A DNA stretch of 64,000 nt from Elsinoe ampelina (taxonomy: Eukaryota): positions 3,058,489-3,122,488 of the forward strand of contig ML992501.1 in NCBI GenBank assembly GCA_010093995.1, written 5' to 3'. The notes under the pieces are model-generated. The model saw nothing but the letters and a program-made list of their open reading frames with translations, was not told where the DNA came from and did not search any database. Made by a program: the position numbers and the translations under genes. Each line of letters begins with the position of its first letter. The first letter of the stretch is position 1. Of the stretch, positions 30,832-56,700 are shown one piece after another.

Positions 30832-31190
30832 GACGAGCTTGACTGCGCTCAATGGCAGCAGCGGTGGTGGAGCAAGCGATATGGTATGCGTGGGGCAGTC
30901 GGCGTAGGTGCGGGCAGAAGTGGCAATGACTCGCGGAGCACATGTCTTGGCAGAATGTTTTGCTTCAGAGAATCGGATCTGGATCTTGACATCAGCGCTC
31001 GGCAGATCTCAAAAAGTTCGTCCCTGAGATCCTTTCCCGTTGTCAAACTCACGCTCTACGGCCCCTCTGGAGCTTCATGGTCTACTTGTCACAGCTTGCT
31101 GGATGTATTGGATTTCGTTGAGTCCCTTCAGCAGCTGCTCTCGTTCTTGCCGCATTTCCTCAACTTCACCCATAGATTGCCTCTCGTGGC

Positions 31191-34100
31191 ATGCTTGAGA
31201 GAGCATCTGCATGCCTCGAGTCAAGCATCTGGTGCTCTCGAAATGCTTCAAAACGGACAAGGGGCAGTAAACGATTACTACACTCGGCCTTCTGGAGCCA
31301 TGGAGCGACATACCTCGATCTCTTGCCTTTCGCCTTCGATGCACACCGAAGTACTGTTCCAACCGCGGTAACATCACCCTCTTCGCAAGGGCATCCCGCC
31401 CCCCAGCGTGCGGATGTACCGTTTCTCGATTTTCTCTATCCCGCACAGGCGCTGGCATTCCTGTCACGTACCTTTGGTAGCTCCGCAGACCACCCACGAC
31501 GGCGACATGTTGTGGGCAGCAGACGGTATTCCTCCCTTCCTCGACCCAGCCACGCTCGAGACATTCGCATCGCTCAGCTCCGATCATTCTCACAACAGTC
31601 TCCGCTTGATGTGCTAGCCGAACATTCAGAGGACCCACTCGGGTTGGAGCTTGATGTCTCCAACCCAGATGCTGAGCAGGATGGTCATGCTATGGCTGTG
31701 GTTAAGCAAGGGAAAACGTCTCAGATGCAGCTTTCTCAACAGCATCAGAGGAAAGAGTCGGCCGAAGCAGACCGGGGGACACACAAAAGCACAAGCTTGG
31801 GAGCTTTCGAGGAGATCATCCGGAACCCTTCACCAGACACGCCATTACCTCGCGTGCGAGCATTATGGAATGTTCTGACTGACACGCAGAAGTCGAATGC
31901 AAGCCTGAAGCGATCTCTCCACCTCTGGTTGTCGAGTCGTACCCAACATGGAACCCGTTCAGAAGCTTGGGCGTGGTCGAAAGAAATTCTGAGTCAGATC
32001 AGTCCCGAGGAACGCAGTTCGACCGTATATCGCTCGGCGATCTCTGTAGCTTTGAAAGGATCGGACGTTACATTGGCGGAGACCCTTCTGCACGAAGCCT
32101 GTGCGCGAGGGTTGCGCAGCGACTTTGGCGCAAATTTACTGATGAGGCACCACTTGAGGCAGCGCAAGTTCGACCAGGCTGTGTCGCTGATGACCACTAT
32201 GCGGGACTATTCTACGTTAGTTGGGGAATCGGCCATCTACTACAAGACGTTCGAAGGAATCGAGGGAGCAGCATGGCACACTTCATGGCTACCGGCTCTT
32301 ATGCGGTATCTCAATGATCAAACATCTACTGGAAATCCTCTGGCCACGTTTCGGGAAATTTTCGCCCGGGTCGCAAGCCGCTTCCCAGGATGGATCGCTC
32401 ACAAGACCGGCGGTCAATTCAATGCGAGAGTGGTGGCATTCAAAAAATTTCTGGACGAAATGAAATTTAGACCATGGGCTACGCTTGCTTATGAAGCGAT
32501 GCTTTTTCGCCTGTTAAGCAATACCAAGTCCAGTCATAAAGAGCGGTTTAGCAGATTGACTGCACAACTTTGGGGCGAGTACATGAGAGTCCAGGGCGTC
32601 GGACCATCCAAGGCCCTGATGATGCAAATTCTTCAAGCTTGGGAATCGGACCGCTTACTATGGCGCAACATCAGGTACAAGGAAGGGGAGCCTGCATTGC
32701 ACCCGAAGCTTCTCCGCCTGGATTGGGAAAAGCATTTTGGAAATCTCGACCACATGGCGCGGGTCAAGCTCTCAGTACTTGCAGCTCGAGCTGGAGATGT
32801 TGCTGAAGTCGAATCTCTGGCCCACGGCCTCCTGGAAGGGCCGCGTCAAAATCATGATCCTGACTATTTCTGGACATATGTTTTCGTGCACGCCCGACGC
32901 CGGGATGCGGCAGCTGCTCAGGATGCGTTTGATCGGATCGTCAATGAGTTTCGGCTTCGCCCTAGCGTACAGACTTGGGATATGCTACTTCATGCCTACG
33001 ACCGAGCAGATGATCTAGATGGAGCATTGAGGTGTTTCAAGCACAGGCAAGCTGAACAAGTTAAGATCATGCCACAAAGCATTTCTTCATTGCTCAATCT
33101 GTACGCCAAGCTTGGCGATGCAGATGCCATCAAAGAATTGATCGACTACGCTCGCGAAATGAACGTCCCAATCGATACTTGGATGATGAACTCTCTCATC
33201 GTAGCGCATGCACAAGCAGGGCACGTGGACTGGGCAACAGAGACTTTCGAAGAGACCATAAAGCAAAGGAAAGCTGGCCAGATCTCAGGCTCGCTGCGTA
33301 TTCCTTTCAATAGCGTCCTATCTCTTCATGCACAACAGAAGAACTTCCCCGCGGCCATCTCGATATATCGACAGATGAAGACTAAGGGTATACCTTTTGA
33401 CGACCAATCTTACGCCTCCATGGTCATGGCCCTGTGTCAGCAACGACGTCCAGATTCAGCTTGGCGAATAGTCAACAAAGTCATGGCCAAGGAAGGATTC
33501 CAGCCTACCGCCTTTCATTACACTCAAGTCATGATTGGCTTTGTGAATACGAGAGAATATCGCTACGCCATCGACGTCTATCATAAAATGGAGATGGCTG
33601 GTATCAAGCCAACTATCGGAACCAAGGCGGCATACCTGAAAGCCAAGGCATTGAACGAGCATCTGTCGAAGCAGCATGACGAGCCCCTTCCGCATGAGCA
33701 GATCGAAGGCCAGGAAATTGACGATCCGCGACCATTGGACGACACAATCCGAGAGCTTCTGGATGCATTGGAGGAAGACGTAGAGTTCGGCGACAAGGAT
33801 TTTGGGTTGCGAGACATTCGTGTTGTAGAGGCGAAGACGTCGCTTTTCGAAACACTCATTCAACTACATGGCCGACGAAGGTGCTTTGACGCGGCTTGGC
33901 AGCTCTTTCATACCGCGACAAACTACGTGTCGGTGAAGGGTAACGAGATTCCACCATTCCGTCTCATAACAGCCATGATGTCTGTCTACTGCCGTGCAGG
34001 TGAGCACGAAGAAGTCGAACGCTGCTGGAACCTTCTTGTGCAAGAAGCAAATCGACGACGTTTGGTTCAATTACCGGAGCTTGCTTCCAAAGACCCAATG

Positions 34101-34871
34101 ACAGGTGTCACTGACACTGCCGAAGAATCAGCATCCGAAAGGCTGCTCGACTCTATCACCAATCATCCTCCCGAAGATGCCAGCCCACCAGCCTCAACAT
34201 CAGGACCTCGCATCTCGCCCCACCCGGCGCCATCCAAACGCTTCCTCCTCTCCGTTCCCTTCCGCTACCTCACACGCTCCCTCACCCAAAGCCCTTCCCT
34301 ACCCGCCTCCCGCATTTCCTCCCTCCTGTCCACACTCCTCTCCCTTCTCGACCAGTCCTACACCCTGGACCATAAGACCTGGAACACCCTCATCCAATCC
34401 CTAATGTCGCTTCACCCACCCCGCGTCCTCCTCGCCTACACCCTCACCGAGCGCTTCCTCACCCCCAGCTTCCCCGGATGGCGCTATCCCTCCCGCATCG
34501 TCGCCCTCGACTTCGGAGTGCAGAACAATTCCCGACGCGCGGAAGGGGTGGAATACATGGCCTACCCGCAGCGGTACGTGCGCGCCGGGGAACGACTACC
34601 CACCTACCGAACGATGGTGTACCTCGCTTCTGGGCTCTTGGAGTTGCGACGACGGGAGACAACGGGATGGGAAGCTGGAGTGCGCGAAGAGATGTCGAAT
34701 GGCGAGTTGCGGGGTCAGGTGGGGAGTGTAGATGCGGTGATGAGGAGGGCGCCCAAGACGGTGGCGAACGTGAGGGAATTGCCTATTGTGTACGATGGGT
34801 TGCAGAGAAGGTTGATCAGGGGAGGGGGAGAGGGGGGGAGGGGGGAGAGGTGGTATAGTGAGCAGGGATAG
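31191..34871 (+). CDS. Mitochondrial pentatricopeptide-repeat protein, Cya5/Pet309-like translation regulator
   Basis: 1226-aa ORF with N-terminal MLERASACL...HSAFWSHGA and FLDFLYP. Multiple PPR motifs (PSVQTWDMLLHAY, DTWMMNSLIVAH, FDDQSYASMVMAL, PTAFHYTQVMIGF). Confidence 0.85.
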   Translation: MLERASACLESSIWCSRNASKRTRGSKRLLHSAFWSHGATYLDLLPFAFDAHRSTVPTAVTSPSSQGHPAPQRADVPFLDFLYPAQALAFLSRTFGSSADHPRRRHVVGSRRYSSLPRPSHARDIRIAQLRSFSQQSPLDVLAEHSEDPLGLELDVSNPDAEQDGHAMAVVKQGKTSQMQLSQQHQRKESAEADRGTHKSTSLGAFEEIIRNPSPDTPLPRVRALWNVLTDTQKSNASLKRSLHLWLSSRTQHGTRSEAWAWSKEILSQISPEERSSTVYRSAISVALKGSDVTLAETLLHEACARGLRSDFGANLLMRHHLRQRKFDQAVSLMTTMRDYSTLVGESAIYYKTFEGIEGAAWHTSWLPALMRYLNDQTSTGNPLATFREIFARVASRFPGWIAHKTGGQFNARVVAFKKFLDEMKFRPWATLAYEAMLFRLLSNTKSSHKERFSRLTAQLWGEYMRVQGVGPSKALMMQILQAWESDRLLWRNIRYKEGEPALHPKLLRLDWEKHFGNLDHMARVKLSVLAARAGDVAEVESLAHGLLEGPRQNHDPDYFWTYVFVHARRRDAAAAQDAFDRIVNEFRLRPSVQTWDMLLHAYDRADDLDGALRCFKHRQAEQVKIMPQSISSLLNLYAKLGDADAIKELIDYAREMNVPIDTWMMNSLIVAHAQAGHVDWATETFEETIKQRKAGQISGSLRIPFNSVLSLHAQQKNFPAAISIYRQMKTKGIPFDDQSYASMVMALCQQRRPDSAWRIVNKVMAKEGFQPTAFHYTQVMIGFVNTREYRYAIDVYHKMEMAGIKPTIGTKAAYLKAKALNEHLSKQHDEPLPHEQIEGQEIDDPRPLDDTIRELLDALEEDVEFGDKDFGLRDIRVVEAKTSLFETLIQLHGRRRCFDAAWQLFHTATNYVSVKGNEIPPFRLITAMMSVYCRAGEHEEVERCWNLLVQEANRRRLVQLPELASKDPMTGVTDTAEESASERLLDSITNHPPEDASPPASTSGPRISPHPAPSKRFLLSVPFRYLTRSLTQSPSLPASRISSLLSTLLSLLDQSYTLDHKTWNTLIQSLMSLHPPRVLLAYTLTERFLTPSFPGWRYPSRIVALDFGVQNNSRRAEGVEYMAYPQRYVRAGERLPTYRTMVYLASGLLELRRRETTGWEAGVREEMSNGELRGQVGSVDAVMRRAPKTVANVRELPIVYDGLQRRLIRGGGEGGRGERWYSEQG

Positions 34872-35193: not shown

Positions 35194-37322
35194 CTACTCA
35201 CTCCTCTCCCCCTCCACCGCACCAGCAACCTTTGGCCCCTCCCTCCCCGCCCTCCTCCTCTCCTCCTCCTCCTGCATCTCCCTCAGCTTCCCCAACCTCG
35301 CACTGGGCAACCACTTTTCCTCAGGCGTGACCCACCAAGTGACGATCCCGAAGACGGTGATGGCCCCGAAGATGACACACGAGTAATTAAACGTCTCGGC
35401 CGTGACGGGGAAGAACAACGGACTGAACAACACCCCCGCGAGGTACGTGTTCCACACGAACGCGATGAAGGTCATGGGGCGGGACCACCGTCCCAGGTTC
35501 CACCGCGCGTGCTTGAAGTCGTGGGGCGTGATGAACGTCCTCCCGAAGCAGATGAGCGCGTAGCCCGTGATGGTGGGGACGCCGGCCGCGGAGACGAGGG
35601 AGGTGAAGGCCACTGGGGACGGGAGGATGGTGCAGAGGAGCAGCGATGCGACGGCTAGCATGAGGAGGATGGCGTTGCGGGGTTCGCCCTTGGGTGTGAC
35701 GCGCGAGATCCAGCCGGAGAAAGGGAGGACGCCGTCTCGTGCGACGGCCCAGATGAGACGCGAGGCGGCGACGCCGGCGACGGAGGTGTTGAAGATGTGG
35801 CCTAGGACTACGACTACTATCATGGGGATGTGGCCTCGTTGACCCATTGTGAGGGAGTAGAGGAGGACGAAGGGCTGTGGGGCGGAGAAGGAGTAGAGGG
35901 TGTCGAGGGAGGGGGAGCAGAAGAGGAAGAGGATGACGGTGGGGATGCCGAGGAGACCGGCTGCGAGGGCGGAGAAGAAGATGCCCTTTGCGGAGTTGAT
36001 GTTGGCGCTTTGGGTTTCTTCTGAGATGTGGCCCGATGCTTCGTAGCCCACGAGGATGCCGGCCGTGACGTAGTAGGAGAGCATCCAGTTCCAGACGGGA
36101 GGGGCGCCGGTTTCGTTGTAGGTCTCGAGGAGGAAGGATTTGTCTTGGAAACCGTAGGAGCGGGAGACGGCGATGGGGAGCCAGATCATGTTGAGGAAGA
36201 AGTCGAGAAGGACGATGCCGGTGGCGACGCGGAAGACGTAGCGGTAGATCTTGGGAGGGATGAAGCACATGCCGATGGAGATGAAGCAGATGCATTCGGC
36301 GACGATCCACTGCACGGCTCGGAAGCGGATGTTGTTGACGTCGGTGGGGAAGTCGTATTCGAAGACGGCGATTTCGGACAGGATGTAGTTGGCGGCACCT
36401 TGAGAGTTGGATGAAATGAAGGTGGTCCAGGCGGTGCAGCTCCACCATGCTACGACGAAGCCGAAGAGACGGCCATACTTTTTGCCACCAGATGCGGCAG
36501 CCCAGCTGTAAGAGTTAGATGTTGGTCATCTCTCGTGTAGGAGGGTACTTACAAGTAGATACTTCCTGCGGCGGGAAGTGCAGAGCAGACCTCAGCAATG
36601 ACGGCAGCGGTGATGAAGACGAATACGCAGGTCACCAGGAAGGAGGACCAGTAGGCGAGAGGTCCTCCAGCTCCGACACCGATGGAGAAGGTGACCCTGA
36701 TGCCACCGACAAAGTAGAGAGCGGCTGCACAGTGTGAGCTTAGTTCCAATACTTGGTTGCTGACACAAACCGAATGCCGAGGCAAAGCTCTCGAACAGCT
36801 TCCAGTGTCGATGTAAGGCCTGCAGTTGTCAATATCACGTCGGCTGGATTGTCATGTAATACTCACTTGTTTATAGCCCAGCGCATTCTGAGCTGTGTCA
36901 ATAAGCTGTTCTTCCTTTACAAGGGGGAAGATAGGCTGGATCTTTTGGTCATAGCATCTCCTTACGCGCTCATGAAAGCGATCAAGTTCAAGCGGTGATT
37001 TCTCAGCCTTTGTCTCTTTCGAGACGCAGACACCCGCGTGCCATGAATGTTATTTCGTCCCTCCACCAGCAGCAGGTCCACCTGGAGATGACACTGGTGG
37101 AGAAATCATAGCCTGACCAATACATACCTGTGCGCGAAAGAGATGTTGCTTCTACCAGTGGATCTGACCATCCTCGATGGCTCATCTTACCAGGTACTGC
37201 TCGTCCGAGTCCATGCTCTGTGTTTCGGTAAAGTCGCTCTGCAGCGGGTTTTGGGGCTTGACGAGATCCTCGTTGACATGGGCCGATTTGGACCCATTGC
37301 GGTGGGTGACACTCGACGACAT
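35194..37322 (-). CDS. APC-superfamily permease, Thi9-like (likely thiamine or thiamine-precursor transporter)
   Basis: Exons 37322-37191, 36887-36867 (NALGYKQ), 36819-36771, 36724-36553 and 36505-35194. Motifs AEVCSALPAAGSIYFW, GYEASGHISEET and SRLIWAVARDGVLPFS. The TPP aptamer in intron 1 supports the thiamine link. Confidence 0.88.
36950..37045 (-). promoter_or_regulatory. TPP (THI-box) riboswitch aptamer in intron 1 of the permease
   Basis: Minus strand reads CAUGGCAC-GCGGGUG-UCUGC-GUCUC-GAAA-GAGAC-AAAGG-CUGAGA-AAUC-ACCGC-UUGAA-CUUGAUC-GCU-UUCAUG-AGC-GCGUAAGG-AG-AUGCUAUG. P1-P5 pair, and the UGAGA, CUUGAU and GCGUAAGG consensus elements are present. Confidence 0.93.
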
Positions 37323-53768: not shown

Positions 53769-56700
53769 TATGCTCAAACAGTATCGTACGATTCAACGAC
53801 CGCATTTCATAAAAGGTCGAGAGCTTTGCCATTGCCAGTCAAACTGCATGATCTTCACTTGCCAGCCCTTGGATGGTATATCCCGGAGTACGGTGCTGGG
53901 CTTCAGCCATACATGGCAGCGCTCTGGATCTGCCAGTCTTAGGCCTCCAGAATACATGCAAAAATCGCCCTAGTCTCAACATGACAGTGTCTCCAGCCGC
54001 TCACTTCGCGGTCTAGGGAACGTCCAAGCTGTATTGAAGTGGAGGCAGGGGGCCGCGCTCCTAAAACCCTATGCTCTTCGCCAATTTAGGCGTCCTGTTG
54101 TTGTAAAGGCGAGGATGAAGACAGGTTGGGCCCGCCAGGGCTGTCAAATCCTGCTTGCCGAATGTATCACGTATCCAGCTGTCCACAGCATCCTCCCGAA
54201 GCCTTTCAGGTCCAGCCAGGTTCACTTGCCCATACAATGAGATTGTATCGTGTTGAACGTTACAGGACCAGCTCCAGATTACGTTCAGGCTTGTTGTCGG
54301 ACTCTCTGCCACAACGAGTGCGGCATCTGTCTTTATGCTTCAATTGCTCTGGCCCAGGCCTATCCATACCGTAGCGGTCACGAAGCCGGAGAATAAGCTG
54401 TTCAGTGTACAAGGCCGGATTGCCTCGTCGCTGGTACCCTTCGATCGGTCTTGCTGTTCTGCTGCACAGATGCTCAAGCGATCCTTGCAATCACCTGTCA
54501 ACACGCAGGCGTCATACCAGCTTTTCCTCCATCATGCGCGAGGATGCGAGTCGATCATGGGTGCCAGCCCCGCCATTGCAAGCATGGGACGGTAGCTGTT
54601 GGCTCGTTCCAAGGCCTTTGTGCTGGTCAACAAAGCGCGCTGAGGCCGGTCTCGATCCGCGTCACGAACAAAGAGTCGTGCGATCCATCTTGTGAAAGTC
54701 ACTGCCAGTCAGTGTGAGGCTGCATCGGATGGGTTTGCAAACCAGCAGGCAGAGGTCCAGACTGTTGTTGACAGGGTCGGTTGGGTCGCATCGCCCCCAT
54801 CCACGGCTTCGGCGAGTTCGTGATGATGAAGACGGGTTCTTAGTCTTGCTCAGCTATCGCACAGCGGCCAACGCTTCGCATGCTCATGTTGTCAAGATCG
54901 GCAGGATGTGCACCCCAGTTCCTGCCGTTTCCTACCAAGTAGCCACTCACGCGGTCTCCCAGCTCTTTCCTGCACTGCGGCCGAAGATTTCCAACCTACT
55001 ACTAGCTCCCGGTTCATCTCTTGATTGGATATCGTCGTATGCGTGCCTCCTGCGAGACATTGTCGATTAGAGATGTCGGAGTGGGGGTGGCGATCGGCTG
55101 TTGGACGGGGAGCAGCGGTGGTCGCTTTCATGGTGATTGGTCATTGTGTTGGATGTAGCGTCTCGATCTGATACGCTTCTATTTCGCTTGGGGAACGGTG
55201 ATGATGCTTCATCGCTGTGGCAGTCGGAACTCACGCCCAGTCTCTCCAAAGACGTTGAGGTCGCAGAAACCGCTGGTGACGCTCGTCTGGCTGAAGAAGG
55301 TGTCAGCCGATTTGTAGCCGAGTTCGATGCTGTCCAAAGCTGTAGTCGGTCGACCCGGGTTAGGATGCACTTCTTGGCCGGCGAACATGGCAGTCGAGAC
55401 GTGGCGCTCTCCATGTATGGATCTTGCCGCCGTCCGCTATCTCTCCGAGGCCCGGCTAAGATAAACCACTTGAGACTGCGCTGTCGACTCGTCACTGTCG
55501 CCATGAATGATTCATTGCATGTCCTGCTGGTTTTCATCGACCGGGGATGCTGAAATACCTAGATGTTATGCAGATCAGCATACTCGGCGTCGTCGCGGTA
55601 CCAGCAGAGTGGACCAACCCGGCCCTGCCAGCTTTGAATGAAAGATCATGTCCGCCGAATGCAACAATGAATTAAGCATTGCATTCTTTGTCAAGATCCG
55701 CACTCTTGCTCAGCATTGACGTCACATCATCTCCTTTAGGGCTCGGATCAAGGCGGTCAGATCATATCAGATCAGGTCGGGGTGATTTGATCACTGCGAG
55801 TCTCTCAAAGGCGTCATTACGATATCACTAGACCCCATCTGCCTGTTCCTGGACGTCATTTGATGGCAATGGGCATGCCCCATTGCTCAGATACTATCGG
55901 GCAGCCGAACACGTGACCCTACATAGACTGAATTTGCGGCTGTGTGCATCTGTTGGATGGAGAGAGACTACCAGGCTTGGAGCCTTGTCTCATCACGGTA
56001 TTCACGCCGTAGGTCATGGACTCGAGGTCGAGATCTCAGGTACTACCAGGGGTATCATCACGCGAGGGGTTCGGAGACACAGGAGGCTTCATCGGGCGCA
56101 GTGGGCACCTTGCTCCTGTTCGGGCATTTCGGGCGTCCCCGCATTAGTTGTGGAATACTACCAGGTCTACGACATGGCGCTGTGTTGCGGGTTCGGTCTC
56201 GTATCAGATACCAACCCATGGGCATCGTACTACGAGGCTCGAGCCATCCTCCAATTCCCGCACCGAACCAGATTGTAACCGACCATACTCCTTGAGAAGT
56301 CCTACCATTTCGGGGTGTCAGGTCCTTTGTACGGGTTGAGGTTGAGCCTTGTAGATAAGGCACGGCCCTTCGATCATCCCTCGCAGAAGCCCTGCTGGAC
56401 GTATCGGGTGCTACCAGACCTTCCTCCCAGACGTGGCACGCCGATTGAGAATGCCGTCGGCCCCTGAGTGTATGGTGGAGGTACTACCAGACCAGCTTCC
56501 CAGAATGACCATGCCAACTCAGACTGCCACCTGATGCCCCTGCATGCACGCGAGGTCCTACCAGACCAGATGCCGCGCATCAAGTCTATGCTAGGCGTGC
56601 TAGTCTTTGCCGTGAACGTAGCATCATGACTGCCAGGCAAGGGTGGCAGCAACACGATTCAGGCTGAGGCGGCGATCAATGGCAAAGGCATCGCTCTCGC

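Follow-up and report, generated by a model that had tools for sequence, protein, structure and literature searches.

How could removal of the first coding intron of a thiamine-transporter-like gene be placed under the control of thiamine pyrophosphate (TPP)? The question is raised by a gene on the minus strand of a 64,000-nt stretch of Elsinoe ampelina DNA (assembly GCA_010093995.1, contig ML992501.1, positions 3,058,489 to 3,122,488; this whole stretch is referred to as the window, and all positions are counted within it). The gene is interrupted by a compact, putatively ligand-controlled element, a 303-nt intron within the coding sequence. Judged from its sequence, this element, the first intron in the coding region of a Thi9-type permease gene, is probably a eukaryotic TPP riboswitch. 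The analysis established which elements are present, that they are complementary and conserved, and that they co-vary; the feature itself is real, is conserved among relatives and very probably has a function. The parts on which the argument depends were as follows.

36888–37190, minus strand: first coding intron, 303 nt, interrupting the coding sequence after codon 44.
37185–37190, minus strand: donor 1, CUG/GUAAGA (GU at 37190–37189), the putative productive site, non-consensus.
37182–37184, minus strand: in-frame UGA, codon 47, met if sequence past donor 1 is retained.
37129–37175, minus strand: upstream anti-aptamer strand, composed of a core α (37145–37129) and an extension (37175–37147) that pairs with the 3′ strand of P1 and the 3′ flank.
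37122–37127, minus strand: donor 2, CAG/GUAUGU (GU at 37127–37126), a consensus, putative "poison" site 2 nt past α.
36941–37047, minus strand: TPP aptamer, with P1 (37045–37039/36956–36950), P2, P3, P4 and P5 and no P3a.
36927–36972, minus strand: downstream switch-helix strand, composed of a core α′ (36972–36955) and a tail (36954–36927).
36888–36902, minus strand: shared acceptor AG (36889–36888) and a branch-point-like UUGAC, the branch point being assigned by motif alone.

We consider it probable that these parts work as follows. Without TPP, 37175–37129 would pair with the aptamer 3′ half and its 3′ flank (36972–36927), forming a clamp helix incompatible with P5, P4 and P1. The helix would stop 2 nt short of donor 2 (37127), leaving that donor in an enclosed loop, and would pull the weak donor 1 (37190) toward the acceptor (36888); the entire intron would then be removed, giving a full-length mRNA, and the transporter would be produced. 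With TPP, the aptamer would keep its 3′ strand, the helix would be blocked and the advantage of donor 1 would be lost. Splicing from donor 2, possibly together with intron retention, would keep GUA AGA UGA in frame and give a 46-aa product, and the stop-containing mRNA would be a likely target of nonsense-mediated decay. This logic fits a thiamine importer repressed by TPP.

The original prediction had placed two donors (37190 and 37127) before one acceptor (36888), and these coordinates were confirmed on the minus strand. The 63 nt between the donors begin with GUA AGA UGA, and the claimed truncation at 46 aa was reproduced (44 codons plus GUA AGA). The acceptor junction matched that of annotated orthologues. 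It had also been claimed that the switch lies inside the coding region rather than acting through a uORF (upstream open reading frame) of the 5′ untranslated region (5′ UTR); the position of the intron after codon 44 bears this out, and such a placement is not new, being known from NCU01977 and from the predicted "Type III" riboswitches.

A TPP aptamer in this intron is supported by a match to Rfam family RF00059 and by co-variation of its stems. In a permissive Rfam scan, RF00059 was the sole family matching the window at E ≤ 0.01, with a score of 48.2 bits and an E-value of 3.3e-8 over 901 nt (2.3e-6 over the whole 64-kb window), and the alignment was full length (model positions 1–105). The P1–P5 architecture was present with the conserved CUGAGA junction and the ACC...UGAAC...UGAU and GCG-N-AAGGA segments, and the CUGAGA junction and the P4/P5 arm agreed with the consensus. 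Across 19 orthologous introns, 95% of the cells of P1, P2, P4 and P5 were paired and 7 of 19 pairs had changed on both sides. This level of stem co-variation was reached by none of 500 shuffles, and slid controls were 21–51% paired.

The complementarity reported originally, between 37145–37129 and 36972–36955, was verified: 16 pairs including one G-U, with U36964 bulged and an A37131/A36970 mismatch. α′ consists of the last two bases of the P5 loop, the 3′ strand of P5, a CG bulge, the 3′ strand of P4, the junction and the first two bases of the 3′ strand of P1. The 14 inner pairs of α with α′ gave −21.3 kcal/mol (RNAduplex). When the aptamer strand was compared with every 17-nt window of the 64 kb, 127,968 over the two strands, 16 reached this energy; 11 were trivial antisense, three were overlapping windows of α and two belonged to one unrelated site (55728–55745, plus strand), which lies 18 kb off on the other strand and presumably pairs by chance. 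When the 38-nt aptamer strand was set against the 143 nt that separate donor 1 from P1, ΔG was −30.7 kcal/mol, whereas 200 dinucleotide shuffles gave −22.5 ± 3.1 (p = 0.02).

The helix, which joins 37175–37129 with 36972–36927, has about twice the length first described, and a single upstream strand thus spans the aptamer 3′ half plus 29 nt past P1. The minimum free energy (MFE) fold of 37230–36860 without ligand (−121.4 kcal/mol) contained this helix, with core pair probabilities of 0.83–1.0, and extended it by five outer stems.

37150–37147 with 36956–36953, minus strand: outer stem in the ligand-free MFE fold.
37157–37154 with 36949–36946, minus strand: outer stem in the ligand-free MFE fold.
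37164–37161 with 36942–36939, minus strand: outer stem in the ligand-free MFE fold.
37169–37167 with 36936–36934, minus strand: outer stem in the ligand-free MFE fold.
37175–37170 with 36932–36927, minus strand: outer stem in the ligand-free MFE fold.

The best fold with the aptamer enforced had −110.1 kcal/mol, and the predicted gap of 11 kcal/mol is of the order that ligand binding and tertiary contacts might pay. The α core begins 45 nt past donor 1 and the extension about 15 nt past it; the tail ends about 39 nt before the acceptor. Since the helix reaches 37175/36927, donor 1 and the acceptor are placed at the two ends of one helix.

Three further structures were noted within and around this helix. 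A 5-bp hairpin (37180–37168, minus strand; CCAUC-GAG-GAUGG) lies 10 nt past donor 1, in competition with the clamp helix at its outer end. It formed in the aptamer-enforced fold, and relatives carried at this place a GCUC-N5-GAGC hairpin or a GAGCUAG word; the hairpin might reduce the use of donor 1 when TPP is bound. In the free and aptamer-enforced folds alike, predicted pairing joins the acceptor AG and the end of the polypyrimidine tract (36894–36888) to the beginning of exon 2 (36881–36875, minus strand). The spacer between donor 2 and P1 contained the third.

37058–37105, minus strand: spacer hairpin with a 14-bp stem between donor 2 and P1 in the MFE fold, probably optional.

The spacer folded better than shuffles (p ≤ 0.05) in five of 17 relatives, and with p 0.09 in the window, so the hairpin looks optional.

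A sample of related introns came from a scan in which an alignment of 37 permeases was run against metagenome contigs. This gave 80 loci, and a profile of the aptamer 3′ half matched upstream of the permease in 51 of them; most of the loci lacking an aptamer had no upstream DNA or were 39–54% identical. Ten loci were dropped because the contig ended before donor 1 or the anchors could not be placed (L005, L006, L008, L015, L029, L042, L046, L051, L059 and L077), and four as exact duplicates (L014, L044, L054 and L078), leaving 38 distinct introns, namely the window and 37 relatives. MAFFT lost the register of α across loci; pair counting was therefore confined to the aptamer stems, and α was assessed by shuffle and swap tests. 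A pair table for α derived from RNAduplex was judged circular and was not used.

With the 38-nt aptamer strand set against the stretch from donor 1 to P1, the upstream strand beat 200 dinucleotide shuffles (p ≤ 0.05) in 31 of the 38 introns. Co-variation of the two strands across orthologues had been proposed as a check, and it was borne out by swap permutations and by compensated examples. Among 17 Dothideomycete-type representatives, the observed total energy of the 24-nt core was reached in 5 of 20,000 permutations and that of the 35-nt tail in none of 20,000. The own aptamer strand was the best fit in nine of 24 representatives. Compensation could be read directly in the sequences: a P5 3′ strand ending in GAGCGCG goes with an upstream CGCGCUC (L001, L036 and L025), and one ending in AUGCGCG with an upstream CGCGCAU (L009 and L017).

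The splice sites followed an equally regular pattern, a strong consensus donor being defined as a GURAGU or GUAYGU hexamer. Donor 1 was strong in none of the 38 introns, whereas the constitutive intron that comes next had a strong donor in 15 of 36 cases. A strong donor between donor 1 and P1 was present in 33 of 38 introns, where 3.8 were expected from shuffles. The first in-frame stop after donor 1 was found in 37 of 38, and it lay upstream of donor 2 in all 33 having a strong donor 2. In 19 of 32 introns no more than 6 nt separated donor 2 from the α end; in nine of these 19 the duplex also paired the first bases of donor 2 with the P5 loop.

Several observations count against the proposed riboswitch, and they bear on different parts of it. 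One set concerns whether there is a switch at all. The aptamer scored below the Rfam gathering score (54.3), no Rfam match was listed for the window at gathering thresholds, and only one of 20 orthologous loci passes, the aptamer of L023 scoring 59 bits. The shortfall of the window is due to the absence of P3a and an 11-nt insertion in P3 in the alignment, and the low number of passing loci is consistent with a remark in the portion of PMC11683625 used here that a long P3 stem conceals TPP aptamers of fungi. The pairing was non-significant in 7 of 38 introns (L004, L020, L031, L047, L052, L069 and L079); the loci are related, so the counts are not independent events; and in the swap test the window's own strand ranked only 9th of 17 for the core (with five ties) and 5th of 17 for the tail, because its core is consensus. 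If these points are taken together with the p of 0.02 for the window pairing alone, and with the statement in a 2022 paper, as far as its excerpt goes, that Thi9-type riboswitches lack experimental validation and that their function cannot be assured (PMC8786325), the complementarity could be a chance match by a cryptic GU, with an aptamer that is inactive or acts otherwise. This was already disfavoured and is very improbable: only one non-trivial site besides α pairs so well with the aptamer strand in 128 kb, the pairing is kept in 31 of the 38 introns, the swap tests favour co-variation, and the stems of the aptamer themselves co-vary.

A second set concerns the masking of donor 2. The original prediction held that pairing hides the poison donor and that TPP releases it. 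What stood of this is a conserved, co-varying strand beside a strong donor 2, with an in-frame stop upstream of it. What did not stand is the direct occlusion, as in the window only positions −3 and −2 of donor 2 lie within the helix and its GU does not. In the ligand-free prediction the probability of being unpaired was 0.60 at G(+1), 0.78–0.91 at +2 to +4 and 0.16 at +5; with the aptamer enforced it was lower, 0.12–0.49 for +1 to +6. The thermodynamic model thus fails to reproduce a "release", donor 2 being predicted less open when the aptamer is formed. Moreover, 13 of 32 introns have donor 2 at a distance of 9–74 nt from α, which rules out direct masking as a general mechanism.

For these reasons a purely bridging helix was kept as a rival. 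As in NCU01977, the helix would join donor 1 to the acceptor and loop out the rest, donor 2 would be unmasked, and it would win by default when the helix is lost. The helix ends about 15 nt from donor 1 and about 39 nt from the acceptor, co-variation was strongest in the tail, donor 2 is mostly unpaired from +1 to +4 in the ligand-free prediction and distant from α in a third of relatives, and for NCU01977 itself bridging was shown by compensatory mutants, according to the account in PMC3597705 drawn on here. Bridging alone, however, needs no clustering of donor 2 within 6 nt of α (19 of 32), nor its partial pairing in nine introns, and the core partner is the 3′ strand of P5/P4, as in NMT1, and not the P1 shoulder. 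We therefore regard bridging alone as unlikely, and retain a clamp helix acting on both donors.

The third set concerns the use of donor 2. A strong second donor was absent in 5 of 38 introns. In the DUR31 gene of C. parapsilosis, the only short coding-intron case that has been tested, little thiamine control of the second donor is evident in the part of PMC5997356 consulted; its authors propose control of the first donor, with a stop-containing unspliced RNA. Accordingly, a rival was kept in which TPP lowers the use of donor 1, the UGA at codon 47 ends translation in the retained intron, and donor 2 is little used and unregulated. A stop placed right after donor 1 (GUA AGA UGA), as kept in 37 of 38 introns, needs no donor 2, and the same excerpt reports that thiamine blocks the fully spliced product of DUR31 in both C. 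parapsilosis and Ogataea. An idle donor 2 is nevertheless hard to reconcile with a perfect-consensus donor kept in 33 of 38 introns beside a donor 1 that is never consensus. Retention by itself is thus a decidedly unlikely explanation, and the two-donor clamp model was preferred.

Some relatives differed in design. A Leotiomycete-like group (L020, L047, L052, L053, L055–L057 and L069) had a peptide ...DDDEKQL before donor 1, a very weak first donor (GUAUCC, GUAGUC) and a missing or weaker pairing with the aptamer strand. GUAUGU lay about 15–25 nt before P1 in most of them; L052 had strong donors about 55 nt before P1, and L069 had none. This group may use a different platform, and the model is not to be extended to L020, L047, L052 and L069, in which the pairing was not significant. 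Two other loci of about 40% identity (L063 and L067) had an aptamer, no consensus second donor and a significant complementary strand starting 12 nt past donor 1; these look nearer to a pure bridging or donor-1 design.

A second anti-aptamer element past donor 2 was considered, as 37118–37113 paired with 36985–36980 in the MFE fold. It reached p ≤ 0.05 in one of 27 introns (p 0.54 in the window) and was rejected as a general feature. In one clade (L006, L010, L013, L017, L024 and L026) donor 2 is followed by a CAUCAAG(U) word complementary to the 5′ strand of P4, and this pairing was non-significant against shuffles.

The switch was compared with the nearest known systems. In NMT1 of Neurospora crassa (Cheah et al. 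2007, as summarised in PMC3597705 and PMC5997356), a second donor in the 5′ UTR is masked by P4-P5 pairing and uORFs are involved. The present intron resembles it in having two 5′ splice sites and one 3′ site, in the predicted pairing of a P4-P5 strand beside the second 5′ site without TPP, and in the repression that TPP would exert. It differs in that NMT1 has a 5′-UTR intron with uORF poisoning, whereas here a coding intron with an in-frame stop was found, and in that the pairing here abuts donor 2 (−3, −2; it ends at −2 in the window and covers the first bases of donor 2 in nine of 32 relatives) and continues into the 3′ strand of P1 and the 3′ flank. The core pairs with the 3′ strand of P5/P4, as in the NMT1-type platform that had been invoked, and that reading has to be amended, as the extension to 37175/36927 makes an NCU01977-type lever rather than pure masking.

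In NCU01977/DUR31 (Li and Breaker 2013, PMC3597705), an α near donor 1 has the P1 shoulder, about 530 nt distant, as its pairing partner, as proven by compensatory mutants in the account available. As here, a coding intron is concerned; an α less than 60 nt from the first donor pairs with the 3′ side of the aptamer only without TPP, downstream donors lead to premature stops, and the acceptor is drawn close to the first donor. The geometry was the same in the window, where α is within 60 nt of donor 1 and pairs with the 3′ side of the aptamer, and α′ is within about 60 nt of the acceptor. The two differ in the gene (SSS/urea-type there, APC AA_permease_2 here), in α′ (the P1 3′ shoulder there, a P5/P4 3′ core here), in the separation (about 530 nt against 156 nt), and in the intron, which has 550–900 nt and three alternative donors there and 303 nt and one strong alternative donor here. 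The α consensus RGCGGYRRY of that system is not present here.

The closest description is that of the predicted "Type III" riboswitches (Mukherjee et al. 2018, PMC5882874): an internal intron of 200–400 nt, two donors with an in-frame stop between them, and an acceptor just past the aptamer. The layout in the window agreed with it throughout (303 nt, donors 37190/37127, UGA 37184–37182 and an acceptor 52 nt past the aptamer match). In the portion of that paper drawn on here, the second donor is described as sequestered when TPP is absent, no base-pairing model is given, and the mode is described as not observed experimentally. The same portion states that amino-acid-transporter riboswitches are absent from Ascomycota, which the window and the 51 loci contradict. 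The Thi9 or "TPPsw-AA" group (Moldovan et al. 2018, known through excerpts of PMC5997356, PMC8786325 and PMC11683625) involves the same gene family, and the part of Donovan et al. used here states, with reference to Moldovan et al. 2018, that Thi9 orthologues of Pezizomycotina carry riboswitches. The present switch is therefore a further member of a catalogued, predicted class ("Type III"/Thi9), not a new kind, and the bipartite helix may already be in print in Moldovan et al. 2018. In the literature searched, no experimental study of Thi9-group riboswitches was found.

What the window and the 37 related introns add is an explicit, mutation-ready model in which strands compete with the aptamer, the productive donor is weak, the decoy donor has a consensus sequence and an in-frame stop follows immediately. 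Its value lies in a concrete, testable pairing scheme for a class known from prediction, which could show whether masking and bridging act together. More tentatively, we suggest that Thi9-type switches share a bipartite clamp, the 3′ part of which would disrupt P4/P5 beside the decoy donor while the 5′ part would zip up the 3′ strand of P1 and the 3′ flank, tying the weak donor to the acceptor. The two known fungal mechanisms might then be halves of one ancestral design, with lineages shifting between masking and bridging; on present evidence this is a possibility that we would not yet call probable.

The gene surrounding the intron was modelled with five exons.

37191–37322, minus strand: exon 1 (ATG 37322–37320), 132 nt or 44 codons, ending ...DEQYL.
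36867–36887, minus strand: exon 2, 21 nt.
36771–36819, minus strand: exon 3.
36553–36724, minus strand: exon 4.
35194–36505, minus strand: exon 5, with the stop codon at 35196–35194.

The five-exon model stays in frame and gives a 561-aa protein. The junction ...DEQYL/NALGYKQ/ALHRHW was reproduced and agrees with the protein annotation of two Elsinoe species, and a peptide end [DE]E..L of exon 1 was kept across the orthologous loci. Exon 5 matched the Pfam family AA_permease_2 (E 1e-38). There were 711 homologues at E ≤ 1e-30; the best were 94% and 88% identical, both from Elsinoe, and several at 54–56% identity carried the source name "Thiamine transporter thi9". By these similarities the gene is classed as a Thi9-type APC-family permease, its link to S. 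pombe Thi9 being taken from the homologue names only.

The intron model also explains errors in gene models, since at least one public orthologue protein starts inside the intron. The Myriangium orthologue (P0003) is annotated from "MTKRS...", a translation of intron sequence from an AUG inside the 3′ strand of P1; its equivalent in the window is 36952–36917 on the minus strand (AUG ACC AAA AGA UCC). The N-terminus of a second protein (P0008) is likewise odd. It seems that the riboswitch intron causes public gene models of the family to omit exon 1. Beyond the permease gene, an uninterrupted open frame of 1231 aa (31176–34871, plus strand) is its convergent neighbour.

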